64,000 bases of DNA from Kofleriaceae bacterium (GTDB taxonomy: Bacteria > Myxococcota_A > Polyangia > Haliangiales > Haliangiaceae), in contig JABTUH010000016.1 of assembly GCA_015075455.1 (NCBI GenBank), forward strand, positions 1-64,000. The letters are read 5' to 3'. Position numbers and translations under genes: made by a program. Positions 24,608 to 59,461 of the stretch are shown here, piece by piece. Within the stretch, counting starts at the first letter, position 1, and each line of letters begins with the position of its first letter. The notes below the pieces were generated by a model. That model worked only from the letters and a program-made list of their open reading frames with translations, was not told where the DNA came from and did no database searches.

Positions 24608-26011
<1,404 letters not shown>

Positions 26012-27415: not shown

Positions 27416-27493
27416 CGGGCGCCGGCGCGGTCGGGCCCGACGGGCCGGTCACGCCGGTCACGCCGGTCAGGGCGGTCAGGGCGGTCAGGCCGG

Positions 27494-28312
27494 TCAGGGC
27501 GCGAGCGTCGCCGCGGCGGGCTGGGCCTCGACGTCGGCGAGGTGGTCGACGTAGCCCGGCAGCGCATGCGGCAGCGGGTGGGCGTCGCAGGGCGTGGGCG
27601 TACCGAGGATGAAGGTGGAGGCCGGCGGGATGCCGGCCTCGGCGTAGGCGCAGACGTCGGTGGCGGCGTTGCCGTAGGCGCGGACGACGCGCAGCCCGGC
27701 GGCCTGGAGCGCGGTCAGGGCCTCGCGCTTGAACGCGCCGACGCCGTCGCGGCTCGGTCGGCCGTCGCGCAGGCGATCGGGGGTGAACAGCGGCCCGAAC
27801 GGGAAGCCGCCGGTCACCAGCCAGCGCCGGGTGCGCTCGCGCAGCGGGTACGGGCGGCCGGTGACGTAGACGACGAGGTAGCCCTTGTCGGCCCAGGCCC
27901 GGGCCACCGCGGCGGCGCCGGCGAAGGCCTCGGCGCCGCGCCCGAGCAGGTCGTCGAGCAGCTCGCCGTCGTCGATCGTGAGCGTGCCGTCGACGTCGAA
28001 CACCACCGCCGGCGTGGCGCCGGGTAGCACCCAGACGCCACCCTCGGCGGCGCTGCCGTCGCCAGCGACCCGCATCCAGTAGCGGTGGTGCCCGGGTGGC
28101 AGCGCCGGCGCCTGGTAGCCGGCGCGGCCGTCGTCGTCGGTGCCGGTGCGGCCGAGGCGGCGGACCGCGCAGTCGGCGCCCGCCAGGTAGACGTCGACGT
28201 CCTCGCCCTCGAGGTCCTTCGAGACCTTGCCGTAGGCGAACTTGGCGACGAGCTCGGGCCGGGTCCGCGCTGGCACGACGACGTCGCTGGCGACGTGGCG
28301 CGGCTCGCCCAT
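27494..28312 (-). CDS. HAD-superfamily phosphatase of the LNS2 / App1 (lipin-like) type
   Basis: VVFDVDGTLTIDD (DxDGT motif I) is present, with ...VVYVTGRPYPL.. downstream. Start taken at ATG 28312 (MGEPRHVASD). The upstream 30 codons are uncertain. Confidence 0.65.
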   Translation of the reverse strand: MGEPRHVASDVVVPARTRPELVAKFAYGKVSKDLEGEDVDVYLAGADCAVRRLGRTGTDDDGRAGYQAPALPPGHHRYWMRVAGDGSAAEGGVWVLPGATPAVVFDVDGTLTIDDGELLDDLLGRGAEAFAGAAAVARAWADKGYLVVYVTGRPYPLRERTRRWLVTGGFPFGPLFTPDRLRDGRPSRDGVGAFKREALTALQAAGLRVVRAYGNAATDVCAYAEAGIPPASTFILGTPTPCDAHPLPHALPGYVDHLADVEAQPAAATLAP

Positions 28313-28619
28313 GCGAGCGACGACGGCGCTGCGATCGTGGCGCCACGCCGCGCCGCTGGCGGTCGGGGGCGCGCAGGCCGGCGCCTCGCCCGGCCACGGC
28401 ACGCGCGGCGCGCGCGCTCGCGCTGGCAGCCGCCGGCGAGGGACGAGCGCGGCGGCGAGGCGGCGGCCGCGGCGCGGGTGGCGAGCGCGCGGTGGTGAGG
28501 GTCGAGGCGGGGCGGGTCACGGCGCGTCGGCGAGCGGCGGTTCCAGCCCGGATCGCGCGCTCGGGTTCGGATCGGGTCGGGCTCGGATCGATCCGCTCAC
28601 CCGCGCCGCCTTCACCGAC

Positions 28620-29700
28620 CGCGGTCGAGCCGCGCGGAAACCGAACGGCCAGCGCAGTGGGCGCGGGCGCCCCGGTCGACGCCGCGCGGCCCCGCGCCGA
28701 CATCGGCGCGGCCCCGCGCGACCGGCGACGGCGAGCGCGCATCTCCGCTCGGCCCGAACCAGCCGCGCGAGCGCCAGCGAGGGCGTGTCGAAGGCCGACA
28801 CGCCGCGGGCCCCGCGCCGACACGCCGCGGCGGCGCTTCGCCGACTGCGCCGCGGCGCCGCCGTCGCGCGCTCGACGCGAGCTCATCTCCGCTCGGCCTG
28901 AGCGCGCGAGCGCCAGCGAGGGCGTGTCGGCGCGGCCGACACGCCGCGGCCCCGCGCCGACACGCCGCGGCGCCGCGCGCCGACACGCCGCGGCGGCTCA
29001 TCATCTCCGCTCGGCGCTGGAGCCGCCCGACCGCCAGCGAGGGCGTGCACGGTCGGCCGCCGACACGCTGCAGCCCGCGCCGGCGACACCGCCGCGGCCC
29101 GCGCGCGACCGAACGGCGAGCTCCATCTCCGCTCGGCCTGAGCCGCCTGAGCGCCAGCGAGGGCGCGGTCGAAGCCGACACGCGCGCGTCGCCGCGCCGA
29201 CGCGCCGCGGCCCCCGCGCGACCGAACGGCGAGTCCATCCCTCCGCTCGGCAGCTGAGCGCATCGCCGCGGCGCCAGCGCGGCGCGTGTCGAAGGCCGCC
29301 ACGCCGCGGCCGCCGCGCCGACACGCCGCGGCCCGCGCGACCGAACGGCGAGCCGATCTCCGCTCGCTCGGCGCTGCTGCCGCCCGAGCGCCAGCGCGGG
29401 CGTGTCGAAGGCCGACACGCGCGCGGCCCGCGCGCCGACACGCCGCGGCCCCGCGCGACCGAACGGCGAGCGCGATCTCCGCTCGGCCGGAGCCGCCCGA
29501 GCGCCAGCGAGGGCGTGATCGCGCCGACGCGCGCGCTGACGCGCGCGCCGCGCTGCCGCCGCGGCCCCGCGCGACCGAACGCCGAGCCCATCTCTCCGCT
29601 CGCCCTGCTACGCCGCCCGAGCGCGGCCAGGGCGCGGCGCGAGCGCCGACGCCGCGCGGCCGCGCGCGCGCTGCGGGAGCGCGGTACGGCTCCGAGACCG
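28620..29700. repeat. Array of about 9 degenerate tandem repeats of about 112-132 bp, each containing a conserved hairpin
   Basis: Unit consensus is ATCTCCGCTCGGCC-(10-20 variable)-GAGCGCCAGCGAGGGCGTGTCGAAGGCCGACACGCCGCGGCCCCGCGCCGACACGCCGCGGCCCCGCGCGACCGAACGGCGAG. Clear copies start at 28741, 28885, 29003, 29125, 29237, 29355, 29475 and 29589, with a partial copy at 28620. The core CGTGTCG-aaggc-CGACACG is a 7-bp-stem inverted repeat. All six frames translate to Arg/Ala noise. Confidence 0.8.
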
Positions 29701-29859
29701 ACGGCGGGGGCCGGCCTCGGACAGTGCTACGCGCAGCCGGGGCGTCGTCGACGGTCACGACGTGGCGCCGTCGTCGCCGCGCAGGCGGCGCGCTCGCAGC
29801 ACCGCGGCCCACCGCCGGCGCCAGGGTGCGCTCGCCGTCGTCGACGCTCGGCGATCACG

Positions 29860-34398
<4,539 letters not shown>

Positions 34399-34402
<4 letters not shown>

Positions 34403-35108
34403 CGCACCGCGCCCGCGCCGCCGCGGCTACTCGCCGCCATCGCTGCCGGGGCGGTGCGGCGCCGAGCTTGCCGATGCGCGGATCGCTCGCGGCCCTTGTC
34501 GTCGTCACCGAACAGGCGGATGCGCTGGCCAGCGCGGTTGTGGCCGATGGCGTAGACCACGCCGGCGACGCCGGAGATGGGCAGCACCACCATCAGCACC
34601 GGCATGAGCAGGAACATGGGGACGATCTTGGCCACGATGCTGGCGACGATCAGGTACATCGCCGCCGCGGGATGGTCTCGCGCGCGCAGGCGCCGGCGTA
34701 GAGCCAGCCCAGGGGCCCGAAGAAGAACGACAGCCCGCCCGACACCAGCCACGACTTGCCGCGCCCGACCTCTCGCGCGGCTTCGTCAGCTCGAGGTGCG
34801 CGGCGTCGCTGGCCAGCGCAGCGCGCGGCAGCGCGGTCTCGAGGTCGCCGCCGCGATCGCGCCCGCGCCCGCCCTCGGTCTCGCGCCCGGCCCTTGCGCG
34901 CCTTGCCGGTGACGATCGCCGCCTGCCGCTCGCGCAGCTCGTCGCGCTCGGCCTGCTGGCGCGCCGCTCGCGCCGCGCCGGCCCGGGCTCGGCCTCGGCG
35001 CGCACCCGACGCGCGGGCGACGTCCGCGGCGCTTGCCTCGGCCGCCAGCGCGTCCAGGCGGGCGCGCAGCTCGTCATCGTCGTCGGGCACGGCCCGAACT
35101 ATGCGCAT
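34399..35108 (-). CDS. Membrane protein with TM2 / PspC-like segment (apparent frameshift near 34650)
   Basis: ...GKSWLVSGGLSFFFGPLGWLYAGA in one frame, then AAAMYLIVASIVAKIVPMFLLMPVLMVVLPISGVAGVVYAIGHNRAGQRIRLFGDDDKGRE in a frame offset by one base. The N-terminal Ala/Arg-rich 100 codons are doubtful. Confidence 0.4.
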
Positions 35109-35470
35109 GATCTCTCCGTGCGCGTCGCCCGCGCTCGCTCGCCTCGCCCTGGGCCTGTCGCTCGGCCTCGCCGGCGGCCTCGCCGGCTGCGGCGCGGACC
35201 TCCGGCCCGGCCGGGGCCCCAGCGCGCGCCGCACGCGCCGGCGAGCGCGCGCGCGCCGAGAAGGCGGCCTCGAGCGAGGAGCCGGTCGACGCCGCGCTGG
35301 CAAGCAAGTGGGGTGGCTGGCGCTACCAGGGCAGCCGCGACGAGTGCTTCTTCGTGGTCAAGCGCCGCTGCTTCACGCGAGCGCGAGGCCGCCTGCCGCG
35401 CCGCCAGCCGTGCGGCGCCAAGCGCTGCGTGGTCGAGGGCGGCGGCCCGCCACGGTGCGCTGCCAGTAGG
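35101..35470 (+). CDS. Possible small lipoprotein (frame-broken)
   Basis: MRMISPCASPALARLALGLSLGLAGGLAGCGADL is a signal peptide with lipobox. A second frame gives AEKAASSEEPVDAALASKWGGWRYQGSRDECFFVVKRRCF. Extent is uncertain. Confidence 0.3.
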
Positions 35471-35559
35471 AGCGCGGCGCGAAGCCGTGGATCGAGCTCG
35501 CGCGAGCCCCGGCGCCAGGCGGCGGCGAGCTGTCGCTCCACCGGCGCGCGCCGCGAGCT

Positions 35560-36155
35560 GGTGATCCGCGCGTCGACCGCCAGGAGCTCGCGTCGAGCCG
35601 GCGCCACGCGCTCGGAGGACGGCCGGCCGCGGTCGGCTGCGCCGGCGTCGGCGCCGGCGAATCGGTGCTGATCGGCGGCCTCGGCATGGGCTTCACCCTG
35701 CGCGCGGCGCTGGCGGCGCTGGCGGCTGCCGGCGCCCGGCTCGTCGTCGCCGAGCTGAGCGCGGCGGTGGTGGCGTGGAACCGCGAGCCGGCTCGGGCCC
35801 GAGGCGGCGGCGACGTTGCGCGATCCGCGGGTGCGGCTCGCGATCGCCGACGTCGCGGCGCTCCGGACCGAGCCCGGCGGCTCGACCGACGCGATCCTGC
35901 TCGACGTCGACAACAGCCCCCACGCCCTGACCCAGCCCAGCACCGCAGCCTGTCGACGCCGCCGCCGCCGGCCTCGCCGCCGCCCACCGCGCCCCTGCGC
36001 CCGGGCGGCCGGCTGGCGGTGTGGTCGGCGGAGCGCGCCCCGCCCTTCCGCGCCGCCTCACCGCCGCCGGCTTCGCGGTCGAGCTCCACGACGCGCGCGC
36101 CCGCCGCGGGCGCGGGGCCGGCCACACGATCTACGTCGGCCGCCGGCCGCGCTAG
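35560..36155 (+). pseudogene. Spermidine-synthase-like (PABS / class I SAM-dependent) methyltransferase, fragments in three frames
   Basis: VLIGGLGMGFTLRAALAALAAAGARLVVAELSAAVVAWNREP (35665) / RDPRVRLAIADVAALRTEPGGSTDAILLDVDNSPHALTQPSTAA / LRPGGRLAVWSAERAP / RLTAAGFAVELHDARARRGRGAGHTIYVGRRPR* (stop about 36153). Confidence 0.5.
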
Positions 36156-36189
36156 CGCGGGCTGGCCGCGAGTCGCGGCGCCGCCGCCG

Positions 36190-37100
36190 GGCCTACGCCG
36201 GCGGCGCGCTTGCCGACGACCGCGGGGATGCGGACGCGCGGGCCGACGTGGACCGACAGCCGCTTGACGTTCTTGTAGAACTCGCCGTCGATGACCGGCT
36301 CGAGCGCGCGTCGGTGGTGGCCTCGAGCACCATCGCCCGGCACGGCCGGTCGAGGACGGCGCGGCGCGGGTCGCTGCGCGTCGCCGCGCGCCATGCGCGG
36401 CAGGTTGCGGGCCACCGCCAGCGGCGACGGCGTGCCGACGATGGCGTTGAGCAGGCCGGCCTGGTCGGCCTTGCCGAGGCGAACTTGAGCACGTTGCCCA
36501 GGTTGATCGACATCGAGGCGACGTGGATGCCGGTGTAGTCCTCCGCCCGGCAGGATCGGCGCCGTCGAGGTGATGCGGCGCCCCTGGTCCGGTTGAAGAT
36601 GTGGTCGGCGTAGCGGGCGAAGCGCTGCCCATGCGCGGACGTGGCGCAGGGGCGTCATCGCCACCGGCATCGACATCAGGTCCGGCCCACGACCTTCGCG
36701 ATCGTGCGCGGGTTGGGATCGTGGTCCTCGGTACTTGGAGAAGCGCGCGCCGGCCGACGCCACCGGCGGCCATCGCGCCCAAGCCGTAGGTGCGGCACGC
36801 TCGCCGCGTCGTCGGGGCCGACCTCGACGCCGTCGATCACCATCGAGTCGACCTCGGTCTCCAGCGCGACGCGGTGCCCCGACTCGATCTTGCGTGCGCA
36901 GCGTGGCGAGCAGCCCCTCGGCGCCGTCGCCCATGAGATGCCGCGATCGATGTTGGCGATGACGGATCTCGATCGTGCCGCCGTTGGTCGGCATGGTCGA
37001 GCGGCATCGTCACCGCATCGCTGGCCGGCGAACTCCTCCTCCGCCCAGCACCTCCAGCGCCCATGCGCAGCATCGCAGTGCGCAGGGCGCCGCGTCGCCG
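36190..37100 (-). CDS. Beta-hydroxyacid dehydrogenase family (HIBADH / 6PGDH-like NAD-binding), frame-broken
   Basis: MSINLGNVLKFAS... and ...ADQAGLLNAIVGTPSPLAVARNLPRMARGD (different frames) resemble the C-terminal helical domain of the 3-hydroxyisobutyrate dehydrogenase family. Upstream fragments VIANIDRGIS and SMVIDGVEVGPDDAA also fit. Extent is approximate. Confidence 0.35.
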
Positions 37101-37749
37101 CCGTCCGCCACGCCAGTAGCGCGCGCGCGCGCAGGCTCTCGCGCAGCACCGGCTTGATCGGCTCGACGCCGTGTGCGTCTCGTGGACCTCGCCCATCGTG
37201 CCGACGATGGATCGCAGGCGGCGCGCGCGGTCCGGCCGCCCTTGTTCTTGCGGCTGTTGCGTTGGTGATGACGCGCGATGCGCGCGATTTGCACTCCGTC
37301 TCGGACGCCGCGCCCCGGGTTGCACGTGCGTCCGGGCGCATCGACGCGGTGCGTACGCTACCGGAATCAAATGGCCGCGCCACGCCCTCCCTGCGAAGCC
37401 GGCGCGCGCCGGCGGCGGGCCAGCAGCCCTGGTGCGCGTCACGGCGCGTCCCGATGAAGCCTGGTCAGCGCGGCACGAGCACCGTCACCGGCGACGCGCG
37501 GCAGCGGCACGCGGAACGCGTTGGTGGCCACCGGCGCGAGCGCGGCGTCGGATCGATCGTCGCGGCGTCGCCGTCCAGCACCCAGCGCGTCGGCGGCGAC
37601 GAAGGTGCGCAGCGGCGCGGCGACGCGCACGCCGGCGGCGAGCGGCACCGTCGCCTTGCTGACGAGCACGATCACCTGGCGGGCGCCGTCGCGTCCGGCG
37701 TAGGCCGTCACCCGCTCGACGTCGCTGGTCGTCGCCGCGGCGCTGGTGG

Positions 37750-39400
37750 CGCCCGCCCGGCGCCCGCACCGTCGAAGCTGGTGCGAGATCCGCAGCCCGG
37801 CGCAGCCGGTGAAGCGCTCGCGCGCCGCCGCGGCGTCGAGCCAGATCGTCGCCGCCGCCACACCCGGCGCGGCCGAAGACGCGGAGCACGTCGGGGCTCA
37901 TCTGCGGTCGCGCGCGCGCCGCTGACGTGGTCGCGCCCGCCGAAGTTCCACTCGGTGAAGGCCAGGCGCGTGTCCGGGTAGTGGGCGGCGAGGTCCTCGC
38001 GCAGGGACGGCAGGAGGCGGATGGGCGCGTCGAGGACGTCGTTGCGATCCAGGAGTCCTCGCGGCAGCGCGGCGTCTGCACAGCGAGCCGCGCGGCGCCT
38101 GGCGCGCGGGCGGCCGCGCCCCGACCGTACGCCGCGTCGTCGCGCGATCGGACACCGTCGCCGCGGGCGCTCCGGGTACCAGGCGCCGCAGATCGAGGGT
38201 GGTCGACCAGGCCAGCGCGCCGGCGGCGGCGGTCTCGGCGGCGCCGCGGAGCTCGTCCAGGAAGTGCGGGATGAAGCGGCGACCGCCGGCGTCGGGCGCG
38301 CCCTGCAGGGTGGTGTAGCCGGCGTAGCCGTAGCCGCGACGACGCCGGACGGCGACCGCCGCGCCACGCGTCGCGACGCTGGCGCGGCGAAGCGGACGGT
38401 GCGCTCGACGACGCCAGCTCGCCGTAGGTCACCGGCGCCGGGTGGACGGCGGGGGTGCGTGCTCGACCGCTCGTCGCGCTCGAGCTCGTTGACACCAGCG
38501 ACACCAGCGCGCGGACGTCGCCCACCAGGCCGGCGCGCGAAGTCGACGCCTCGGTCCTCCGTAGACGCGTGTCGTCGCCGAGGTCGCGGGTGGCGCGCGC
38601 GGGCGCGCGCGCTTGCGCGCGACGTTGGCGAAGTTCGCGGGTGCTCAGGTAGTTGCTGCTCGAGTTGCGCACGTCGCCGACGCGCTGCCGCGTCGGCGGG
38701 CGATCGCGTCGCCGTCGCAGCGCGCGGCGTCGGTCGGCGGCGACGTGATCGATGATCGGGCACGGTGATGATGGCGGCGGTGCCGCGGGCGCGGGCGTCG
38801 CCGAGGGCGCGCGGAAGGCTCGGCGCGTCCGGCGGCGGCGACCCGGGCGCGCCGAGCAGGCCGTCGTTCTGGTGGCATGTTCGGCTCCTCGCCGGCGTTC
38901 GACGCGTTGTTCTCCCCGTTGTAGGCGCGGTCAGGCGGTTGCCGCCGCCGGCGCGCACCAGCCGCGGACGGTCGCGGGCCACGTCGGCGCCGCCGTTGAG
39001 CTGCCGCGCGCGAGCGGCGAGATCGGCAGCCGCGCGGTGTCGGTGCGGACGTCGATCGCGACGTCGCGGCGAGCGCGATCGCCGGGCTCGACGAGCCGGC
39101 CGAGCCCGCCGTCGCCCCCGCCCGCGTCGCCGCCGTCCCCGCCGCCACAGCCGCCGAGCCCGACGCCGAGGCCGACGCGCCGAGCTCCGAGCGCGAGGGG
39201 ACGATCGTCGCGCGGCGGACGAAGGCGGGCGGAGGGGCGGGCGGCGCGCCGGCCGAGGATACGCTGGATCGGCTGCTGCGGCCGCGCGCCCGCGCCGCCG
39301 CGCGGACGGACGCGTCGCCGCCCGCTCGTGCGGCCCGCCGCACCTCGCACCCGCGCCGCTGGCGCGCGCGCGAATCGCCGCGCGCGGGCACGTGACGTTC
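37750..39400 (-). CDS. Probable clan GH-A TIM-barrel glycoside hydrolase, frame-broken
   Basis: GLLDRNDVLDAPIRLLPSLREDLAAHYPDTRLAFTEWNFGGRDHVSGA (around 37930-38080) has a GH-A-type nucleophile motif (FTEWN). The rest is split across frames. Boundaries are rough. Confidence 0.3.
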
Positions 39401-39499
39401 GCTCGCGGATCCCGCGCACGGCTTGCGTCGGCGCGCGACCGTCGCTGTTTGCCCTGCATGCCTTGCGCGCCGCGCGCCCCGAGGAGGTCAGATGCGCAC

Positions 39500-40500
39500 C
39501 CGCACCTACGAGCCGATCGCGACCCGTTGCCCGACGGCCGGACCACCGCGTACCCGCCGGAGGACGAGCGGCTGCGGGCGCTCCGCACGGCAAGCGCCAA
39601 GCACGGCGCAGTGGGATGCCGCACGCCTCGCCTGGGGCAGGATGACGTCGATCCCGCGCGCGCGCGAACTTCCCCGACCAGCAGATCCCGATCTACGCGC
39701 ACCGACCTGTGGGGCCGGCCTCGACGGTCGGCAGCGCGCGACCTGCGGCGGCGCACTCGACCTCGTGGATGCTCTCGCAGTTCCTCCACGGCGAGCACGG
39801 GCGCGCTGCTGGCGTCGTCGCAGGTGGTCGTGGCGTGCCCTGGCTCGACGCCAAGCTCTACGGCGCGACCCAGGTGATGGACGAGGCCCGCCACGTCGGA
39901 GCGTCTACGAGCGCTCACCACTGCGGCGCGAAGATCGGTGCGCCTCACCTACCGCATGCAACCCCGAGCTCAAGTCGCGCGCTCCGGCACCGGCCTCGCC
40001 GACGAGCGCTGGGACGTCGAAGTACCGGGCATGCGAGATCCTGGTCGAGGGCAGCTGGCGCTCGCCGCGTTCCAGTTCGTCCACGCCTTCAGGCAGCGAG
40101 CCGCTGCTCACGGACGGCCACCCACCACGTCATGCGCGACGAGGCCGCGCCACGTCGCCTTCGGCGTGGCGCGTCGTCGCTCGGCGACTACTACCGCACC
40201 GAGCTGTCCGAGGCGCGAGCGCGACGAGCGGGTCCGGCGCACCTACGAGGCCTGCCGCCTGATGCGCGACCGCTTCCGCCGCAGCGCGAGGTGGGCAGGA
40301 GCTGGGGCTGCCGGTCGAGCGCTGCGTCGAGCTGACCCTGTCGTCGCCGGCGATGACCGCCGTGGTTCCGCCGCCGCGGCTGTTCTCGCGCACATCGTGC
40401 CCGACGTGAAGAAGCTGGGGCTGCGCACGCCCTGGCTGCGGTCGGCGCGCTTCGGCGAGCTGGCGATCCTCGCGTTCGCACGGCGCCGCCGAGCGCCTGA
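39500..40500 (+). pseudogene. AurF-like ferritin-fold di-iron oxygenase (p-aminobenzoate N-oxygenase family), frame-broken
   Basis: WMLSQFLHGEHGRAAGVVAGG...PWLDAKLYGATQVMDEARHV carries the first ExxH ligand motif. A later HHVMRDEAAPRRL..GDYYRTELSE..DERVRRTYEACRLMRDRF carries the second E..H region, in another frame. Confidence 0.4.
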
Positions 40501-41408
40501 CCCTCACGCCGCCAGCGCCGCCATCAGGCGGCGAGCGGCGGCTGCCGCGGCGCGCGCCGGCGCGGTGGTAGAGGCGGGGGTGAAGACGTGCTCGTGGCCG
40601 CGGGCGTAGGGCAGGACGCAGGCAGCGCGCGCTGCGCGGCGGAGCTCGGCATGCGGCACAGGTGCTCGGGCGCGCCATGCCGCGGCCGATGCCGGCGAGG
40701 ATGGCGGCGCGCGCGGCGGGAAGTCGCTGAGCGCGTCGAAGCGGACCCGGCGCTCGGCGTGATCGGTGGGCAGCGCCTGCCGCGGATCGCCGCCGCGCAC
40801 CGTCACCAGCGCGTGCCGCCTCGAGCGCGCGATCGTCGAGCGGGCCCTTGCGGCGGGCCAGCGGGTGACCCCGGTGCGCCACCAGCCGGGCGCGCAGCGG
40901 CGCCTTCGCGGGCGCCGACCACGCCGGGGGCGACCGCCGGCAGGACCGCCAGCATGAGATCGGCGTCGCGCGCGCGCGAACGCGGCCTCGACCCCGCCCA
41001 GGAACTCGGAGCTGACGTCGCGCCGGCGCCGGGTGGGCGCGCCGGCGGCGCGAGCTCGCCCACCGCGCGCGGGATGGGCGCGTCGGCGCAGACCCCGTCG
41101 TAGACCACGCGCGCGCGCCGGCTCGCGCAGCCGGTGCGCATCTCGACGCAGGCGGCGGCGAGGTCGGCCTCGGCGGCGAGCAGCCGCCGGCAGTGCTCGA
41201 GCACGCGCCGGCCGCCGGCCCTGCGGCGCCGCGCGAGGTCGAGGCGCGCGCGCGCTCGCGTCAGGTCGAGCTCGACCTGGCGCTCGAGCGCGGCGCGCGA
41301 TCAGCCCGTAGCGCGCCGCCGGCCGCTTGCGCCAGGGCGCGGCCGCGCGCACCAGCGTGCCGTGGCGCTCCAGCGCGTCCAGGGGCCCGTCGCGCCTGGT
41401 CGAGGGTG
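40500..41408 (-). CDS. Hypothetical gene divergent from hmgA (frame-broken; possibly the pathway regulator)
   Basis: ATG at 41408 (MNITLDQ...) sits directly opposite the hmgA promoter. Downstream fragments include ARVVYDGVCADAPIPRAVGELA and VLPYARGHEHVF. No family could be assigned. Confidence 0.25.
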
Positions 41409-41410
41409 AT

Positions 41411-41458
41411 GTTCATTCTCCTGACAGTATATGCGCGAGATTTTGTCCTATCTCCCGA
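41411..41458. promoter_or_regulatory. AT-rich divergent promoter with direct repeats TCTCCTGACAG / TCTCCCGACAG upstream of hmgA
   Basis: TTCTCCTGACAGTATATGCGCGAGATTTTGTCCTATCTCCCGACAGG is the only AT-rich stretch within kilobases. The two 11-bp direct repeats lie 24 bp apart, between the 41408 minus-strand start and the hmgA start. Confidence 0.3.
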
Positions 41459-42535
41459 CAGGGGCGCCGCGCCACCGTCCGGCCATGGACATCCCCGCGT
41501 CCGCGGCAAGGTCGCGGCCAGGCAGCGGCCGTCGCCCTGCGTTCGAGGGCACGGTCGAGGGCGTCGAGTACGCGCGCGACGGCTTCGCCGGCCGCTACGC
41601 CCACCTCTGCCGCGCCCGGGCGCCGGTGGCGTGGTCGCGCATCGAGGGTCCGCGGTCGGCCCCGCGCCGCGACACCGCGCGAGCTCCCGCGCCCGGCCGA
41701 CTACCTCGGCCGCGCCCGCTGCTCGAGAACGCCGACCTCCGGCTCGGTCGTCGCCACCGTCGACGCGCCGATGCCGTACCTGTTCGGCGCGCCGACGGCG
41801 ACGATCGCTCCTGTTCGTCCACGCCGGCGCCGGCCGGCTCGAGACCGACTTCGGGCGCTCGCCTACCGCGCCGAGGGCGACTACCGCGCTGGTGCCGCGC
41901 GGCACCGCCCACCGCCTGGTGCCGACCGCGGCCACCCGGCGGCTGATCGTCGACCGCGCCGGCGAGCGCGGGTGCCTGAGCGCGGCTCGCTCGGCCAGCA
42001 GCGCGCTGTTCGACCCGGCGGTGATCGAGGTCCCGACCCGCAGCGGCCGCAGCACCCTGGCCGCCGACGCCGCCGGCGAGTGGCAGGTGGCGGTGCAGCG
42101 CGACGGGCGAGCTGACCCGCGCGTCTTCGACCGCCACGACCCGCTCGACACCGTGGGCTGCGAAGGGGCGCGGCGCTGGCGCCGCTGCGCCTCAACGTCG
42201 CCGACATCCGCCCGGTGCTCAGCGAGCGTTACCACCCGCCGCCGACCGCCCACGCCGCGTTCGCGGCGCTCCGCCGCCGTGGTCTGCACCCTTCCTCGCC
42301 CCGCCCGCTCGAGACCGGCGATCCGCAGGCCGCTGCGCGTGCCCTTCTACCACGCCAACATCGACCGACGACGAGGTGCTGTTCTACCAGCGCGGCCAGT
42401 TCTTCAGCCGCGGCGCGCGGCATCGCGCCGGGATGGTCACCTTCCACCCCCAGGGCATCCACCACGGCGCGCGCGGCCGACGCGCCGCCGAGCGCGCCGC
42501 GACCGCCACCCGCACCGACGAGATCGCGCCGTGAT
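41431..42535 (+). pseudogene. hmgA: Homogentisate 1,2-dioxygenase, split over three frames
   Basis: GFAGRYAHLCRARAPVAWSRIEGP / LLFVHAGAGRLETDFG...ALVPRGTAHRLVPTAATRRLIVDRAGE / AAGEWQVAVQRDGR...FDRHDPLDTVGCEG / VPFYHANIDR...FFSRGA.HRAGMVTFHPQGIHHG. All match HmgA landmarks (compare SLLFVRSGRGRLETVFG and PFYHRNIDSDEV). Confidence 0.6.
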
Positions 42536-42639
42536 GATCGACACCCGCCGCCCGCTGCGCCCGTCGCGGCGGCGGCGACGCGCCATCGAGCGCCCCGACT
42601 ACTGGAAGGCTGGCGGGAGGAGACGCCGCCCGTGACGCA

Positions 42640-43748
42640 GCGCGACCGCGCCCCACGATCCGAGCGACACGCGCTCAGCCCCTGCGGCCTCGAGGGCGCG
42701 GCTTCGTCGACGCGCTCGCCGGCCCCGACCCCGATCGCCCGCACCGCCTGCTGGTGGCGTTCGGCTTCTCGCGCACGATGACCCACCGCGCGGCGGGCCG
42801 TCGCCTCTACCAGCAGGGCGACATCACCTTCCTGCTCCATCGCGACGATCGCGGCGCCGCCCGCTTCGCCGCCGCGCACGCGCCGTGCAGGCCGCCATGG
42901 GCTGGCGGGTCGCCGACGCCGACGCCGCGGCCCAGCTCGCGGCCGCCCGCGGCGCCCGGCTGGTCGAGGGCGAGCTCGCCCGCGGCAGCGAGGTCGTGCC
43001 CGCCGGGTCAGGGCATCGGCGACAGCCTCCTCTACCTCGTCGACGGCTGGCGCAGCCCGCAGCGCTGGGCGCGCCTCGGCTTCGTGGCCCACCCGCGGCC
43101 GGTGCCGGTCTAATCCAAGGGCTTCCGCGCCATCGATCACCTCACCAACAACGTTCCGCGCGCGGCACCCGCGACCGCTGGGCCGACTTCTACCGCGGCG
43201 TCGGGCGCTTCACCGACGTCCGCTACTTCGACATCCGCGGCGCGCGCGCACCCGGCTGACCTCGTTCGCGCTGCGCTCGCCCGACGGCTCCCGCTGCATC
43301 CCGATCAGCGAAGGCGCCGGCGGCGGCGGGGAGCGGCGCGCGGGGAGGGCGCCGGCGCGCTGTCGCAGATCGACGAGTACCTCGTGCAGTACGGCGGGCC
43401 CGGCATCCAGCACCTGGCCTTCCTCACCGACGGCATCCTGGGCTCGCTGCGCGCCGGCTCGGCACGCCGATGCGATCGGACCCTCGACATCGACGACGAG
43501 TACTACCGCACGGTCTTCGACCGCGTGCCCGGCGTGCGCGAGGACCGGGACGAGCTGCGCCGCCGCAACGTCCTGGTCGACGGCGACGCGCAGGGCTACC
43601 TGCTCCAGATCGCGCGCCGCAACCTGATCGGCCCCATCTTCATCGAGATCATCCAGCGCCGCGATGCCACTCGTTCGGCGAGGGCGACTTCGGCGCGCCC
43701 TTCCGGTCGATCGAGCGCGACCAGCAGCCGCGCGCCGTCTTCACCTGA
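42640..43748 (+). pseudogene. hppD: 4-hydroxyphenylpyruvate dioxygenase, split over frames
   Basis: GFVDALAGPDPDRPHRLLVAFGFSRTMTHRAAGRRLYQQGDITFLL / AMGWRVADADAAAQLAAARGARLV...GIGDSLLYLVD / WADFYRGVGRFTDVRYFDIRG / VQYGGPGIQHLAFLTDGI / DDEYYRTVFDRVPGVREDRDELRRRNVLVDGDAQGYLLQI..IGPIFIEIIQRRD...FGEGNFGALFRSIERDQ. Stop 43746-43748. Confidence 0.6.
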
Positions 43749-43794
43749 CGCGGCGCGAGCGCCGTACGGGGCCCGCGCCGGGTCAAGATCGCGG

Positions 43795-44560
43795 CGTGCG
43801 AGTCGCGATCTGGGTGCTCGTCGCCGGCGCGTTCCTGGCCAGCGTCGGCGTGTTCGTGCCGGCGGTGCGCGTCGAGGCTCATGGGCCGCGCCGGCCAGCA
43901 CGACGACTCGTTCTGCGCTGGCACCGCGGTCGCCGACGCGCTGGCGACAGCGTGCGCGCGCTGCTCGCCCGCTACCAGGGCTCCACGGTCAAGCAGGTCG
44001 GCACCCGGGTCCTGGGCAAGGTCGCGCCTCGCCGCGCGGGGGGCAAGACCCGATCGGGCGTCGACGCGTGCAGGCGGTGGCCGGAGGTCGACCCTCGAGG
44101 ACATCTCGGACGACGACCTGCGCACGATCGGCACGGTCACCACGGTCACGCTGTGGACCCTGCTCGGGCTGTCCGCGGTCGTGATCGTGCTGGCCTTCCC
44201 GGTCAACGCCGGCACCCGCCGCCTCCGGATCGCCGGCGTCGTGGTCGCCGCGCACCCTGGCCGCCGCCATCGGCGTCGCCATCCACCTGCGTGCTGGCGC
44301 GGGTGGTGGCCGAGGTCAGGTCGAGCTCGAGCCGGCGCTCGTCACCCTGCGCACCGCCGCCTACCTGATCGCGGGCGCGATCGTGCTCAGCCTGCTCGGC
44401 GCGATCGCGCTGGTCGCGACCTACGCCCGCGCCCGCCGCGAGCTGCGCCGCGTCGCCCGGGTCGGCCTGGGTGGCGCCTCGCGCGCGTGCGCCGCCGCCG
44501 GGCGAGCCACCGCCGGCCGCGCGCCACCGCCCGGGCGCGCCACCGCCGCGGCCCGTCAGC
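43795..44560 (+). CDS. Hypothetical membrane protein (frame-broken)
   Basis: VRVAIWVLVAGAFLASVGVFVPAVRVEAHG ... LEDISDDDLRTIGTVTTVTLWTLLGLSAVVIVLAFPVNAGTRRLRIAGVVV ... LITARAIVLSLLGAIALVATYARARRELRRVA. Transmembrane segments lie in different frames. Confidence 0.35.
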
Positions 44561-45354
44561 GGCCGTGAAGCGCGGCTCGCGCTTCTCGAGCAGGGCGGCG
44601 ATGCTGGCCGCGGCGGCGTCGGCCGTGGCGACCGACTGCGCCTGGGCGAAGGACTCGAGGTAGGCGGCGCCGCGCGGGTCCCAGCCCAGGCCGCGGTAGA
44701 GCGCGCGCTTGGTCTCGCGCACCGCCGCCGGCGCGCTGGCCGCGATCGCGACCGCCAGCTCCATCGCCCGCGGCAGGACCTCGTCGGCCGGCACCGCCGC
44801 CGACAGGAGCCCGAGCTGCTCGGCCTCCCTCTCGCCGTCGACCAGGCGGCCGGTGAACAGGAGCTCGGCGGCGCGCGACACGCCGACCAGCGCGGCAGCA
44901 GGTAGCTGATGGCCATGCCGCCGCTTGGGCCAGCCCCAGGCGCGTGAAGCGCTGGCGCCGTCTTCGCGCCGCGCGCGCCGATCGCGGAGGTCGCAGCACA
45001 TGGCCAGGCCGAACCCGCCGCCGACGGCGTGGCTGGCGTTGAGCGCGCCGATCACCGGCGCGCGCCACGTCCAGGACCGTGCAGGAACGGCTGGTACATG
45101 GCGAAGCTCTTCTCGCGGGGCCTGCCGCCCCCTCCTCGCGCTGCAGGACCGACCTGAAGTCGGCGCCGGCCGGAACGTCGCGCCGCTGCCGGTGATGACC
45201 AGGCAGCGCGCAGCTCGGCGACCGCGCGCGCGCGCGCCACCGCCTCGCCGAACGCGTCGAGCAGCTCCGGGCCATGCTGTTGCGGTTGGCGGGGCGATCG
45301 AGGGTGATGACCCCGATCGTCGTCGTGGAGCTCGAAGCGGACGGCGGCGCTCAT
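44550..45354 (-). pseudogene. Enoyl-CoA hydratase / isomerase (crotonase) family, two frames
   Basis: MSAAVRFELHDDDRG...GPELLDAFGEAVARARAVAELRA / CLVITGSGATF / PVIGALNASHAVGGGFGLAMCCDLR...ELLFTGRLVDGEREAEQLGLLSAAVPADEVLPRAMELAVAIAASAPAAVRETKRALYRG. Confidence 0.55.
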
Positions 45355-45799
45355 CGGCGCCGAGGCCGCGGCGAGCGTCGCGCGCCGGCGATGCGGCATC
45401 ACCGCCCGGGCGTCGGTCGGCGGCGTCAGTCCGCCGCCGGCACGCGCAGCCCTCGACCTCCAGCCACGCGAGCTCCGGCGCGCGCTCGCCGTCGCTGGTC
45501 AGCTCGACCCGGTACTGCAGGTAGCCGGTGGCTCGACGGCCCGGCGGCGTCGCGCCGCTGCCGTCGGTGAGCGGCGCCGACCACGGCTCGGCCAGGCACT
45601 CGGCCGCCGCCGCATCGTCCGCACCCGCACCGCCACCCCGCCGTCGGGCGGCGATCAGGCGGGCGCCGAACCGCACGGCGTCGAGCGCGGTCACGCCGTC
45701 GCCCAGGTCGCGGACCAGCGAGGTGTACGCGGCCGTCCGCGCCACCTGCTCCGCCGCCCGCCGGCCAGGTGCACCGCGAGCTGGACGTCCTGCAGCGTG

Positions 45800-47305
45800 C
45801 CGGTGTTGCCGGTGACGTTGTCGGTCACCCGCACGGTCCAGGTGCCGGCCGCCGGCAGGTCCGCGGACTCGGTCGGGTCGCGAGCGGGCGCGCGCGTGCG
45901 CGTCGCCACCGTGCCTGTCCGAGTTGTCGCGCAGGAGCGCGCGTTGCCGCCGGGGTGGATCAGCCGGGAGCTCGAGATCGGCGATGCGGTCCGGTTGACG
46001 GTGACGATCACATCACCTCGCGCACGGTCGCCCCCGGCAGCCCGCCCGCCGCTCGACCTTGGCCTCGGCCTCGCCGTTGTCGGGCACCGGGTAGTCGATC
46101 GGGTCGAACGCGGTCTCGAGCCGCCGCCGCCGCGGCTCGAGCGGGCGCAGCCGGGACGCCGGCAGCTCGCCGGTCAGCCCGGGGGCGGGGCCGCCGGCGC
46201 ACCCGCGCGCCTCATGCGGGCGTTGCCGTTGTTCTCGTTGTGGTCGAGGACGAGATCGTTCCAGCGCGCGACCAGCTCGACGTCGACCGTGCGATCCGCG
46301 CGGCCCCGAGAAGAACCGTCGTCGCTCACCCGCTCGCCGTTGACGCCAGAGGCGGTGGCCGTCGTCGGACTCGAGCGCGGACGCGATAGGTCCCGGCCGC
46401 GATCGCGCAGAACTGCCCCGACCAGCGCAGCGACCAGCTCGGATCGCCGGGGCCGCGTGCGGCCGAGCGTGTGGCGCGCCGGCGCCGGCCGCTCGAAGCT
46501 GGCGTCGACCAGCGGCGCCGTCGCGAGATCGTCCGCTCCGGCAGGCGCTGGAAGACGGTGGGTCCCACGCCCGGCCAGCACCGTCCCTCGCAGGTGATCG
46601 ACGCGGGCGGCGCGGCGCGCGGCCCGGCGAGCGGGACCGGCGTGGGGCTCGTCCTGCCGGATAGAGCTGGACGTCGAAGCGCGCGCGGCGCGCCGATGCC
46701 CTCGACCACCGCCAGCCGGATCGGTGCCAGCGCCTCGGTGGCGGCGGTGAACGTCCCGGTGCCGCGCCGCGATCGCGCGCGTTGACCACCCGGGTGAAGG
46801 CGCCGCCGGCGGGGCGACGCTCGACGAACCCGGTGTCGTCGGCGTCGACGACGAACGTGGTCGCGCCGGCGTCGAGTCGGCCACCTCGCCCTCGGCCCAG
46901 TAGGTCGGATCAGGTGTCGCCGGAGTCGAGGCCGACGCCGACCGGATCGCCGACGAGCGGCCAGGCCACGCCCGTTGTCCCGCCGGCGGCCGCCCGCTGC
47001 GGACGTCGGTCCAGGTCGCGGCGTCGGCCTCGGTGAAGCGCTGGGTGTTGGCGGCGTCGCGCGATCAGGCCGCCGGCGTGGTAGGCGGCCGGCGCCAGCG
47101 CGCCCCACGGCTCGATCACGAGCCCGTCGCGGACGGCGCCGACCACCGCGAAGTGCTCGAGCGAGTCGTCGCGGACGACGACGATCCGGTTGCCGGCGTC
47201 GTCGCGTCCGGCGTCGACCTCGACCCCCCCGCGCGCGCCGACGGCGAACGAGCAAGCCGCGGTCAGGGCCGCCAGCGTCCACGCGCCCGCCCCGCGCTGC
47301 GCCAC
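45800..47305 (-). CDS. Secreted hypothetical protein (frame-broken)
   Basis: ATG 47305 opens [82 protein letters not shown] (signal peptide plus sensible sequence). Downstream fragments include [49 protein letters not shown] and [24 protein letters not shown]. Confidence 0.3.
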
Positions 47306-47498
47306 CGCGACGCGACAGGCGACATGTCCGCCATTCTCGCGCGCGAGCCCCGCCCGGTGACAGCTGGCGAATGCGCGTCACGATCTGGCCGGCGACCGGC
47401 GGTGAGCGCGCTCACAGCCCGCGGACCGCGGCGATCGACCCGCCGACGTCGGGCAGGCCATCGGGCCGGCCATCGGGCCGGCCGTCGGGCAGCGCCGA

Positions 47499-55470: not shown

Positions 55471-55674
55471 CGGGTGAACCTCGCCGGCCGATGCGCTCGC
55501 ATCGTAACACCCGCCGCGCGCGGCCCGCGACGCGCCGCGGCCCAAAAGCGCGCGACGACCGCGTCCGCCGGTTGCGGGCGCGGTGACGCCTGGGGTAACG
55601 AGGGTCGATCGTCCCGCCGGTCCGCCGGACGCTCTTCGTCGCGCGCCCCGCACGCGGCGCCGGCGCAGCCGGTG

Positions 55675-56432
55675 ATGACGGTGCTGTTCGAGGGCGACGA
55701 GCTGGTGGCGGTGGCCTGCCACCGGGGCTCGCCGTCGTCCCCGAGCGCGGCCGACCCGGCCGGCTCGCTCCGCCACCGGCTCGAGGCCGCGCGCGGGAGC
55801 CGCTGTGGGTGGCGCACCGCATCGACAAGGACACCTCGGGGTCGTGGTGCTGGCGCGGACGGCGGCCGCCCACCGCTGGCTCAACGACGCGTTCGCCGCC
55901 CGCCGGGTGCACAAGCGCTACGTCGCGTTCGCGGCCGGCGACCTGCCGGGGACGCGCACGGTCGACGTCCCGCTGGTCGAGGCCCGCCGCGGAAAGGCCC
56001 GACCGGCGGCGCCCGGGGCGCGCGGCAAGCCGTCCGTGACCCGGTTCGTCGCCACCGCGCGCTGGCGGCGCCCGCCCGGCGCATCTCCGCCGACCCGGCG
56101 ACCGCGGCGGTCACCTGCCTCGACGCCTTCCCCGAGACCGGGGCCGCCATCATCAGATTCGCGTCCACCTGCGCAGCCTGGAGGCCCTGATCGTGCTCGA
56201 CGGCCGCTCGACGGCAAGCGGACCTTGCGCGGCATCGCTGACCGGCGCGCGCGTGCACCCGCCTCGCCCTGCACGCGGCGCGCGTCTCGAGCTCACCCGC
56301 CCCGACGGCCGCGCCGCTCGCGATCGAGATCGCCGCTGCCGCCCGATCTGGTCGCGCTCGCCGCCTGGCTCGACGCGACGCGGCGACGGCAACCCGAGGG
56401 CGCCTGACGATGCGAGCTGGCTGCTCGGCTGA
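55675..56432 (+). pseudogene. RluA-family pseudouridine synthase, frame-broken with an in-frame 3-nt duplication
   Basis: MTVLFEGDELVAVA / HRIDKDTSGVVVLARTAAAHRWLNDAFAARRVHKRYVAFAAGDLPG..TVDVPLVEA / ETGAAIIRFAS... should read ETGRxHQIRVHL; the observed catcatcag versus catcag suggests a duplication. HQIRVHLRSLEALIVLDG follows in the next frame. Confidence 0.55.
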
Positions 56433-56439
56433 TCGTGTG

Positions 56440-59443: not shown

Positions 59444-59461
59444 GTCCGCACCATAGCGGAA

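Follow-up and report, generated by a model that had tools for sequence, protein, structure and literature searches.

REP elements are G+C-rich imperfect palindromes of 21-65 bp that form stem-loops, are extragenic, often lie 3' of genes, and occur in tens to hundreds of copies per genome; BIMEs combine REPs and other conserved motifs into mosaics in which successive REPs alternate in orientation, and they bind IHF, gyrase and Pol I (PMC3184786). MIRUs have units of 40-100 bp, which are arranged in tandem in the intergenic regions of operons (PMC3184786). Here we describe a repeat array in a 64-kb stretch of DNA from a Kofleriaceae bacterium (the whole stretch that was analysed, hereafter the window). 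The array is a genuine non-coding tandem array (bacterial minisatellite), a reading that was already among those offered by the initial annotation of the window; its 112-bp unit is built from short modules (M1-M5), which carry palindromes and are dispersed across loci and genomes. The array probably represents a cluster, amplified at this locus, of a mosaic extragenic repeat of Kofleriaceae that is REP/BIME-like and lineage-specific; its position is MIRU-like.

The array is located at window positions ~28,587-29,689 and comprises eight unit starts and a diverged leader (Table 1). The presence of a 1.1-kb head-to-tail array, as initially annotated, was confirmed by TRF, by the eight unit anchors (28743, 28887, 29005, 29127, 29241, 29358, 29477 and 29594), by an alignment of nine rows and by contig JAHDXB010000078.1 of GCA_023382815.1 (L011), which belongs to a short-read MAG assembled independently from the same strain. 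TRF reported 28,816-29,669 with a period of 113 (7.2 copies; score, 692), and a second row (28,679-29,624) with a period of 119. No match of the 34-mer core of the unit was expected in shuffled sequences, so that the array is far above chance, and every copy of the unit in the window falls inside the array. Note that the copy number of about eight was read from the noisy window sequence alone (see below), and that the interior units and the right junction were likewise read only in noisy sequence, in which some real inter-unit variation is possible. The leader has, in order, an M1-like head (ATCGATCCGCTCACCCTGAGCC), the M2 palindrome module (CTTCACCGACCGCGGTCGGAG), an M3-like module, two copies of the 21-bp CGACACGCCGCGGCCCCGCGC and a tail (GACCGAACGGCGAGCCC); the terminal unit ends with an M3-like CTGCGGGA...ACGG.

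Table 1. Features of the array, its neighbours and the surrounding sequence (window positions).
Feature	Position	Strand	Basis or remark
LNS2/HAD-type phosphatase gene (PITM1-3/LNS2 domains)	27494..28519	-	Pfam match, orthologues, alignment with L004 and L011
Low-fidelity block, ~28.7 kb, with the array inside	28410..57114		3-25% differences from true sequence, insertion-rich
Native spacer with GGGYTCGG-type hexamer repeats	28520..28586		Also in relatives
Leader (diverged first unit)	28587..28740	+	Clean version in L011 (12,494-12,639); noisy in the window
Seven full units (u1-u7)	28741..29590	+	TRF, anchors, alignment, clean sequence of L011
Intact hairpin copy	28782..28804	+	One of two window copies read intact; the other is 29,399-29,421
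Terminal unit (u8), truncated or diverged	29591..29689	+	Sequence from the noisy window alone
Native right spacer (CTCCGAGACCGAC...)	29690..29726		Collinear with L004
Lhr-type helicase gene	29727..34380	-	Homology; stop codon at 29,727-29,729, 5' limit approximate

The units had been described as degenerate, with variable segments of 10-20 bp between conserved blocks. This description was not borne out by L011, which runs into the array and terminates inside the repeat after 227 bp with a perfect period of 112, where the first two units are perfectly identical to each other. The clean unit is 112 bp in length with 80% GC (ATCTCTCCGCTCGGCCTGAGCCGCCCGAGCGCCAGCGAGGGCGTGTCGAAGGCCGACACGCCGCGGCCCCGCGCCGACACGCCGCGGCCCCGCGCGACCGAACGGCGAGCCC). 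Compared with it, units u2-u7 of the window have 82-92% identity, and 30 extra bp in u1 are directly contradicted by L011. The (CG)n-like garbling of the variable stretches is of the same type as that found throughout the surrounding block. Thus, the 'degeneracy' and 'variable segments' of the units are largely sequencing noise, which arises because the array sits inside a stretch of poor-quality sequence. The unit start proposed earlier (ATCTCCGCTCGGCC) was found exactly in four of the eight units, the true start being ATCTCTCCGCTCGGCC; the 7-bp hairpin assigned to each unit was intact in two window units and present with one mismatch in another, and in the clean unit the hairpin has a perfect 9-bp stem with a 5-nt loop (GGCGTGTCG-AAGGC-CGACACGCC). 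A second copy of the 3' arm of the hairpin is available in the duplicated 21-bp sub-repeat. The modules were defined as M1 (ATCTCTCCGSTCGGCCTGAGCC), M2 (the palindrome module, which includes the 14-bp palindrome CCGACCGCGGTCGG), M3 (GCGGGAAACGAACGGCGAGCCC), M4 (the hairpin module, GCCCGAGCGCCAGCGAGGGCGTGTCGAAGGCCGACACGCCGCGG) and M5 (a tail of ~45 bp); M1 and M2 are imperfect inverted copies of one another around a spacer.

The array occupies the intercistronic spacer of two co-oriented genes, with the start of the phosphatase gene on one side and the 3' end of Lhr on the other, as originally placed. The gap, given as 1.5 kb in the initial annotation, is actually ~1.2 kb (from the phosphatase start at 28,519 to the Lhr stop at 29,727-29,729). 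The true phosphatase start is a GTG at 28,519, which was placed by homology with a relative (L004) that has 96.5% identity on the clean side; the first ~110 bp of the coding sequence (28,410-28,519) are garbled in the window, and consequently the longest ORF there begins at 28,402. The orthologues are 339-342 amino acids in length, and the exact look-up of the 302-aa ORF of the window found no database record because its 5' end is corrupted. L004 has an intact Lhr gene (1,486 aa), a 106-bp spacer and the phosphatase gene, and L006 has an intact Lhr gene (1,554 aa) that overlaps the phosphatase gene; the array is absent from both, and the Lhr gene is frame-broken only in the window. Since the relative with 96.5% identity has only the 106-bp spacer, the array is a strain-specific insertion and expansion. 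The comparison of strains is one of presence (the window strain) versus absence (L004), and the short-read contigs all break at the array. Comparison of the filled site (L011 and the window) with the empty one (L004) gave ATCGATCCGCTC... as the left end and ...GCGGTACGG as the right end; no terminal inverted repeats were seen, and a target-site duplication could not be recognised at the noisy right junction, next to a flank that itself consists of hexamer repeats.

The array had been placed at the edge of a frame-broken block where gene integrity collapses. It is in fact within the block, whose left edge is at ~28,410 (~110 bp into the phosphatase coding sequence and 180 bp left of the array); the link between the array and the collapse is real, but its cause is technical, not biological. 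The frame-broken 29 kb is a sequence-quality artefact and not the product of pseudogenisation. The region at 41.0-47.2 kb, which had no comparator, was counted into the block on the blurred GC3 signal only. The insertion-rich garbling breaks every reading frame in the block. A real 29-kb pseudogene region under GC-biased mutation, with unit divergence of the same origin, would be in keeping with the bias of the substitutions from A/T to G/C (187 versus 101) and with the GC-rich insertions that lift the GC content to 82-86%; we nevertheless consider it extremely improbable, because window positions 57,115-63,523 (6.4 kb) have 100.000% identity to the same-strain MAG with zero differences and the differences jump abruptly, in the middle of a gene, to 3-25% per 300 bp leftwards of 57,115, the left edge also being within a gene. 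In addition, four short-read assemblies agree with one another against the window, and the comparison of the block side with L004 gave 105 insertions versus 25 deletions (107 of the 130 indels were not multiples of 3). Bacterial pseudogenes show a deletion bias, and this 4:1 insertion bias is the opposite of it. The same poor sequence raises the question of whether the array is itself an assembly artefact (collapse, expansion or a chimeric long read), as it lies wholly inside the corrupted block and the closest independent relative, L004, lacks it. This is very hard to reconcile with the independent short-read assembly of the same strain, which has the leader and two perfect units and ends in the repeat, or with the same modules in other assemblies at other loci, and it is accordingly a most improbable explanation.

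Three further explanations give the array a function in coding, in RNA or in protein binding. A repetitive coding segment, for example an extension of the C-terminal tail of Lhr, is suggested by the minus strand, which is stop-free across the array in all three frames, by L006, in which the region of the hexamer spacer codes for an acidic repeat that extends the Lhr tail through the spacer, and by the fact that gene callers do annotate ORFs over such arrays. However, the period of 112 is not a multiple of 3, so that the frame rotates with every unit, and the GC content is flat at 0.80 at all three codon positions (GC3 of ~0.97 and GC2 of ~0.5 in the genuine genes here); no codon-position signal was found on either strand, as initially annotated, the R/G/A-rich translations had no Pfam match, and the TAG stop codon of Lhr in L004 is upstream of the insertion point, with the homologous TAG present in the window. 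We therefore regard coding as having almost no likelihood. Tandem small-RNA genes or riboswitch-like units, another earlier suggestion, would fold around the conserved hairpin, and this would fit the perfect 9-bp stem that is kept in all intact M4 copies across loci, the location within or after operons, and the ~60-nt M4-M1 core that is strongly conserved across assemblies. Against this, no Rfam match was obtained for the window at the gathering threshold, and the clean copies gave chance-level matches only (E = 0.07-0.5, far below gathering). Folding of the unit was no better than that of shuffled sequences (z = -0.6 and -1.3), which is unremarkable at 80% GC; none of the 15 predicted pairs had compensatory changes, the covariation term was unfavourable, and one copy in another locus (L019) has no 3' arm of the hairpin. 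A scan of the clean array found no promoter-like or terminator-like sites, and the orientation of the element relative to the flanking genes in the window is opposite to that in L016, L017, L018 and L020. The array carries neither a coding nor a structured-RNA signal, and structured RNA units are very unlikely. The array could also be a multi-site DNA-binding array with a structural or regulatory role, in which a regulator, gyrase, IHF or a nucleoid protein would bind the 21-bp sub-repeats or the palindromes, as in the BIMEs of E. coli or in plasmid iterons. Its ~16-20 regularly spaced copies of CGACACGCCGCGGCCCCGCGC and its palindromes might suggest this, and BIMEs bind IHF, gyrase and Pol I (PMC3184786); there are no adjacent replication or partition genes, and the absence of the array from close relatives implies that it is not required for the locus. 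Such binding seems unlikely, though it would be compatible with a locally amplified REP/BIME-like cluster.

That the array is a cluster of a dispersed mosaic family is supported by the other loci in which its modules were found. Four contigs of one JGI metagenome carry the modules with 94-99% identity in unrelated flanks, and GCA_900696455.1 also carries them. The family is represented by ~9 clusters of spurious ORFs among 1.84 billion representatives; other arrays are covered by two spurious ORFs, P0241 (corresponding to the L019 locus) and P0242, and exact look-ups of P0241, P0242, P0247 and P0249 gave no record. At these other loci the modules form tandem clusters (68-bp, 86-bp and at least 960-bp forms) just past gene ends, and also occur singly just downstream of stop codons. 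In L020, the cluster is composed of [M2-M3-M1]x3 followed by [M4-M5]x2 and begins 5 nt past the stop codon; in L016, the stop codon is inside the first module; the clusters of L017 and L018 are downstream of co-oriented genes. The module combinations seen were [M2-M3-M1]n, [M4-M5]n and [M1-M4-sub21-M3tail]n. The length and complexity of the array had been judged to be beyond those of a REP element, a judgement that does not hold for a REP/BIME-type mosaic, since the modules are found both alone and in different tandem arrangements. It had also been proposed that a consensus unit occurring hundreds of times would make the array a plain dispersed repeat; the modules are indeed dispersed, but only about ten loci, from several assemblies, document the family, well short of the hundreds that REPs typically reach (the 64-kb window has one, and ~70 kb of related loci have none). 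A scan of the genome collection with the pattern TCTCCGCTCGN{12,24}CGCCAGCGMGGGCG gave three single chance matches in unrelated MAGs; this pattern used the strain-specific CCGCTCG variant and would miss the common CCGGTCG form of the wider family. A scan of viral contigs for the hairpin core gave no match, and nothing relevant was found in the literature on myxobacterial REP elements.

The family shares with the REP/BIME elements of Enterobacteriaceae, Pseudomonas and Stenotrophomonas the G+C-rich palindrome or hairpin modules (the 14-bp palindrome of M2 and the 9-bp stem of M4), the extragenic position past gene 3' ends, and the occurrence as non-coding single elements or mosaic clusters, often in tandem. 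It differs in that the modules are all direct, with a single orientation throughout each cluster, instead of alternating; in that there is no sequence relationship, the phylum being different (Myxococcota, Kofleriaceae); in the number of documented loci; and in length, as BIMEs are typically shorter and the family reaches ~1 kb with periods of 68-112 bp. With MIRU-VNTR loci it shares tandem repeats of tens to ~100 bp between co-oriented operon genes in a high-GC genome, dispersal at multiple loci, filled and empty sites among close relatives, and GC-rich inverted repeats. The 112-bp unit is slightly outside the range of 40-100 bp for MIRUs, and the other clusters have 68 and 86 bp; unlike MIRUs, which have small ORFs overlapping the flanking stop and start codons, the array has no such in-frame ORFs, its period not being a multiple of 3, and leaves native spacer on both sides, and no sequence similarity is claimed. 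Between isolates, the difference documented for the array is one of presence versus absence. The M2/M1 inverted doublet resembles the REPINs of Pseudomonas and others, and the near identity of the core across loci suggests that it spread recently, but no RAYT (IS200/IS605-like) transposase gene was found in any of the loci examined and the pairing has no compensatory support. As with MITEs (Correia, ERIC, Nezha), the element is small, intergenic, hairpin-forming and non-autonomous, and is present as an insertion in one strain but not in another; it is modular and tandem, not a discrete unit, and terminal inverted repeats were not seen. As in bacterial minisatellites or VNTRs, the repeats are head-to-tail (TRF period of 113-119; period of 112 in L011). 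Two other candidates were rejected: a CRISPR array, as in the initial annotation, because what lies between the repeats does not change from one unit to the next, and no cas-type domains were found among the neighbours examined; and an iteron or origin, because no replication or partition genes are adjacent to the array.

The locally amplified cluster could have arisen when one copy of the repeat family landed in the Lhr-phosphatase spacer, followed by the recent amplification of one 112-bp segment, through slippage during replication or unequal recombination of adjacent copies; if so, the locus is likely a copy-number-variable VNTR. The effect of the array would be mainly passive: it would separate two genes that overlap or are 106 bp apart in relatives and would lengthen any read-through transcript by ~1.1 kb of GC-rich sequence that forms hairpins, and any effect on mRNA stability or processing may be REP-like at most. 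Most likely, the collapse of gene integrity was triggered by the array breaking accurate assembly. The accurate assembly would have broken at the array, and the gap would have been bridged with an unpolished segment or a noisy long read, which would explain why reading frames are broken over the adjacent 28.7 kb and why the units look degenerate; in this respect, the start of the MAG contig JAHDXB010000077.1 near the right end of the array is an arithmetic estimate. A stronger version of this interpretation, which is possible but rather doubtful, is that M1-M5 represent an undescribed, recently or currently mobile REPIN/BIME-like family of Kofleriaceae (Haliangiales), with a hairpin core of ~60 nt that is kept near-identical between genomes, and that the family repeatedly seeds kilobase-long, copy-number-variable arrays at operon junctions and thereby tunes the downstream gene; expansion or contraction of the array would then tune or uncouple the LNS2 phosphatase gene behind Lhr.

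The practical import of these results is greater than the biological one. The oddities at 28.4-57.1 kb (broken genes, odd GC content and 'degenerate' repeats) need to be read as low-fidelity sequence, and the 29-kb block should be re-polished. The biological significance, which is modest, lies in an apparently unannotated interspersed mosaic repeat family from a poorly studied myxobacterial lineage of very high GC content. The strain-specific 1.1-kb expansion between two normally coupled genes is a potential strain-typing (VNTR) marker and could serve as a natural test of operon uncoupling. TRF also gave a period-350 row at 81%, which might hint at a higher-order structure in the array.

The head-to-tail array that the initial annotation had placed between the Lhr helicase and LNS2 phosphatase genes was recovered with TRF, an anchor search, and a nine-row alignment (A1). 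TRF reported 28,816-29,669 (period 113, 7.2 copies, 77% matches, 14% indels, score 692), with further overlapping rows at periods 119, 121, and 350, and the anchor CTCCGCTCG occurred eight times in the array at a spacing of 114-144 bp. Within the window (overall GC, 76.7%), the 14-mer and the 34-mer core were confined to the array, and shuffled sequences yielded essentially none; thus, the array is real in the window text and not due to chance. Note that the copy count of approximately eight, the right junction, and the units of the array interior were read from noisy sequence.

The array lies wholly within a block of approximately 28.7 kb (28,410-57,114), 180 bp from its left end, and this block is a sequence-quality artefact. 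Codon-position GC was very clean over 1-28,400 and 57,300-64,000 (GC3, 0.95-1.00) and was blurred nearly everywhere between 28,400 and 57,300; GC rose to 82-86% within 28.3-31.6 kb. Against the ENA contig NODE_218 of a relative (L004), identity was 96.5% on the clean side (27 gap openings over 11.2 kb) and 89.6% on the block side (197 gap openings over 6.6 kb). The excess on the block side was one of insertions (105 vs 25 deletions; inserted bases 86% G or C, in runs of up to 12 bases), 107 of the 130 indels were not multiples of three, and A/T to G/C changes numbered 187 (reverse, 101). The same-strain short-read MAG GCA_023382815.1 (L008) and the window were identical (0 differences) across 57,115-63,523; from 57,114 leftwards, partway through a methyltransferase gene, differences amounted to 3-25% per 300 bp, often as sequence garbled into (CG)n-like filler. 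At the left edge, the window matched L004 at 98-100% up to approximately 28,410, frameshifts began approximately 110 bp inside the phosphatase coding sequence, and past this edge three Logan assemblies, each built from a separate SRA run, agreed with each other and with the MAG against the window. Inside the block, frameshifts occurred every 50 bp or so, the garbling was insertion-rich and GC-enriching, and both edges fell within genes; the block's flanks showed 100% identity to the same-strain MAG. Since divergence of 0% beside 3-25%, with edges inside genes, is impossible for real evolution, the block is the same genome in corrupted form; 41.0-47.2 kb, which had no comparator, was counted in it on GC3 evidence only. 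This low-fidelity status of 28.4-57.1 kb is more consequential than the array itself, and findings of 'pseudogene', 'frame-broken', or extreme-GC sequence within 28,410-57,114 should all be taken as artefact until the block is re-polished. Also in the block, approximately 1.2 kb (about 39,302-40,498) had no counterpart in L004, whose positions 502-550 span only 48 bp; the recurring modules of the repeat family (M1-M5, see the table) were absent from it and its ORFs were uninterpretable, and this stretch may represent a gene or insertion specific to this strain.

The array is NEVERTHELESS real, and less degenerate than the window text suggests. In the same-strain MAG, the phosphatase gene (342 aa) lies on contig JAHDXB010000078.1 (L011), which extends a further 380 bp upstream of the gene through the native hexamer spacer, a leader of approximately 150 bp, and 227 bp perfectly periodic at 112 bp, where the contig ends; to end within the periodic part is the behaviour expected of a de Bruijn assembler entering identical tandem units. 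The clean unit (112 bp, 80% GC, ATCTCTCCGCTCGGCCTGAGCCGCCCGAGCGCCAGCGAGGGCGTGTCGAAGGCCGACACGCCGCGGCCCCGCGCCGACACGCCGCGGCCCCGCGCGACCGAACGGCGAGCCC) was 82-92% identical to window units u2-u7, and the 30 extra bases of u1 in the window are contradicted by L011, which spans that same copy. The hairpin quoted in the initial annotation, intact in just two of the eight window units, is a perfect 9-bp stem in the clean unit. By these comparisons, the unit degeneracy and the variable segments of 10-20 bp described earlier are mostly noise; the interior units may hold some true variation. A second MAG contig, JAHDXB010000077.1 (33,044 bp), ends at window 63,523 and by arithmetic would start at about 29.6-29.9 kb, the right end of the array. 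Its end falls within a (GGGTTC/GGGCTC)n hexamer array (63,438-63,576; super-periods of 18 and 36 bp, 85-86% matches), a repeat type shared with the native spacer between Lhr and the phosphatase. In L006, the corresponding hexamers next to Lhr code for an acidic C-terminal tail, (TETDAE)n.

Homologues placed the organism in Kofleriaceae, Myxococcota. Right of the array, Lhr pieces (DEAD_assoc, WH_Lhr) were found in different frames. In L004, Lhr is intact (1,486 aa) and its stop lies 106 bp ahead of the phosphatase start; in L006, a relative of 70% identity, the genes share a 4-bp overlap. The stretch at approximately 28,587-29,689 had no counterpart in either, and on this comparison the array is a strain-specific insertion, flanked by ...GGGCTCGG on one side and CTCCGAGACCGAC... 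on the other. With approximately 1.1 kb inserted between the genes, the phosphatase start (28,519) is approximately 1.2 kb from the Lhr stop (placed by homology at 29,727-29,729) in this strain, and the effect on the pair would be mostly passive. The units were probably amplified recently, by slippage or unequal recombination; that the first two units are identical supports recency. Accurate assembly would have failed at the array, and the gap may have been bridged by approximately 28.7 kb of unpolished sequence or of a noisy long read. Two short in-frame 9-bp tandem repeats lie where the window is clean and coding, CCGCCGCCA x5.8 (24,621-24,678) and CGGTCAGGC x7.9 (27,428-27,498); the latter matches a length difference of 36-44 bp from L004 near 27,420-27,480, and thus reflects coding-repeat length polymorphism between strains.

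As to the nature of the array, the neighbour-coding strand had no stop codons in any frame, which explains the spurious ORFs that gene callers assign to arrays of this kind; a coding repeat was rejected on the period of 112 and on a GC flat at 0.80 at all codon positions of both strands (GC3 in real genes, approximately 0.97). The suggestion of tandem RNA units found no support, and no structured RNA was recognisable: Rfam gave no matches to the noisy and clean array copies, fold energy was within the shuffle distribution (z = -0.6 on the minus strand, -1.3 on the plus strand), and when eight diverged units of the family were aligned, compensatory changes were seen at 0 of 15 pairs and the covariation term was unfavourable. 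The clean array contained no promoter-like or terminator-like sites. A CRISPR array was rejected because the inter-repeat segments are themselves identical from unit to unit. The minisatellite reading is borne out by the perfect period-112 units of L011. Overall, the observation in the initial annotation was confirmed in part, and its interpretation likewise received partial support.

Modules of the repeat family and the left neighbour of the array
Feature	Position	Strand	Sequence	Remark
M1			ATCTCTCCGGTCGGCCTGAGCC	read from L016-L019
M2			CTTCACCGACCGCGGTCGGAG	holds 14-bp palindrome
M3			GCGGGAAACGAACGGCGAGCCC	
M4			GCCCGAGCGCCAGCGAGGGCGTGTCGAAGGCCGACACGCCGCGG	hairpin module
M5	L017 1,250-1,293; L018 8-51; L019 1,459-1,502; L020 6,118-6,161		GCGCGAGTGATGACGGGCNCATGCCGACGCCGTTCGTCAGGAGC	~45-bp tail
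LNS2/PITM-type HAD phosphatase	window 27,494-28,402	-		domain match; left neighbour

A hairpin-core scan of JGI metagenomes found four contigs, all from the single assembly JAANMY01 (L016-L019), with 94-99% identity to the clean unit over 70-90 bp and flanks unrelated to the window. Their modules stand immediately downstream of genes, in varied orders and short tandem runs. The 112-bp unit consists of M1, M4, a duplicated 21-bp piece of M4, and the M3 tail, and the leader is an M1'-M2-M3' unit. M5, conserved after M4 at four loci (L017-L020) and missing from the window's array, may be a marker of one terminus of the ancestral element. When translated, the clean array matched two spurious ORFs on long NCBI contigs; one (P0241, 321 aa) was 98-100% identical to L019 over segments of 61-72 aa and thus stands for an array at least 960 bp long, at a different locus and in a different organism. 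When P0241 was searched exhaustively against 1.84 billion representative proteins, 11 matches were obtained, nine with the diagnostic reading SAFDTPSLALGRLRPTGE (M4+M1), several also with PTAVG (M2). One of these matches was traced to its locus: in GCA_900696455.1 (L020), a cluster starting 5 nt past a stop codon, between two co-oriented genes, reads [M2-M3-M1]x3 (68-bp period) and [M4-M5]x2 (86-bp period). The family has a propensity for slippage on several length scales. Within the L017 cluster (JAANMY010044392.1, 1,296-1,400), a 20-bp M3 tail/M1 head piece, CGAGCCCCATCGCTCCGGTC, occurs four times in tandem. Viral contigs, the remainder of the window, and approximately 70 kb of related loci yielded no further copy; the genome-collection scan used the strain-specific CCGCTCG variant as its pattern and is uninformative on the wider family among species representatives.

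REP/BIME elements are short, G+C-rich palindromic modules, extragenic just after stop codons, in mosaic tandem-prone clusters (PMC3184786). The family shares palindromic G+C-rich modules, post-stop extragenic sites, and mosaic clusters at several loci, and the earlier view that the array is not REP-like was not upheld; its modules, however, are in direct, not alternating, orientation. The array is intercistronic with filled and empty sites, as described for MIRUs (PMC3184786), but lacks their in-frame coupling ORFs. Neither TIR nor TSD was demonstrable at the insertion, whose right junction is from noisy sequence. Because of these likenesses, and because some defining features failed, we describe the array as working like interspersed mosaic extragenic repeats, apparently a new lineage-specific example locally expanded into a minisatellite, and assign it to no named family; it is a real but ordinary feature. 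Without sequence relation to M1-M5, an intergenic stretch at 11,722-11,852 (80% GC, no codon signal) holds 28-bp and 31-bp two-copy tandem repeats.
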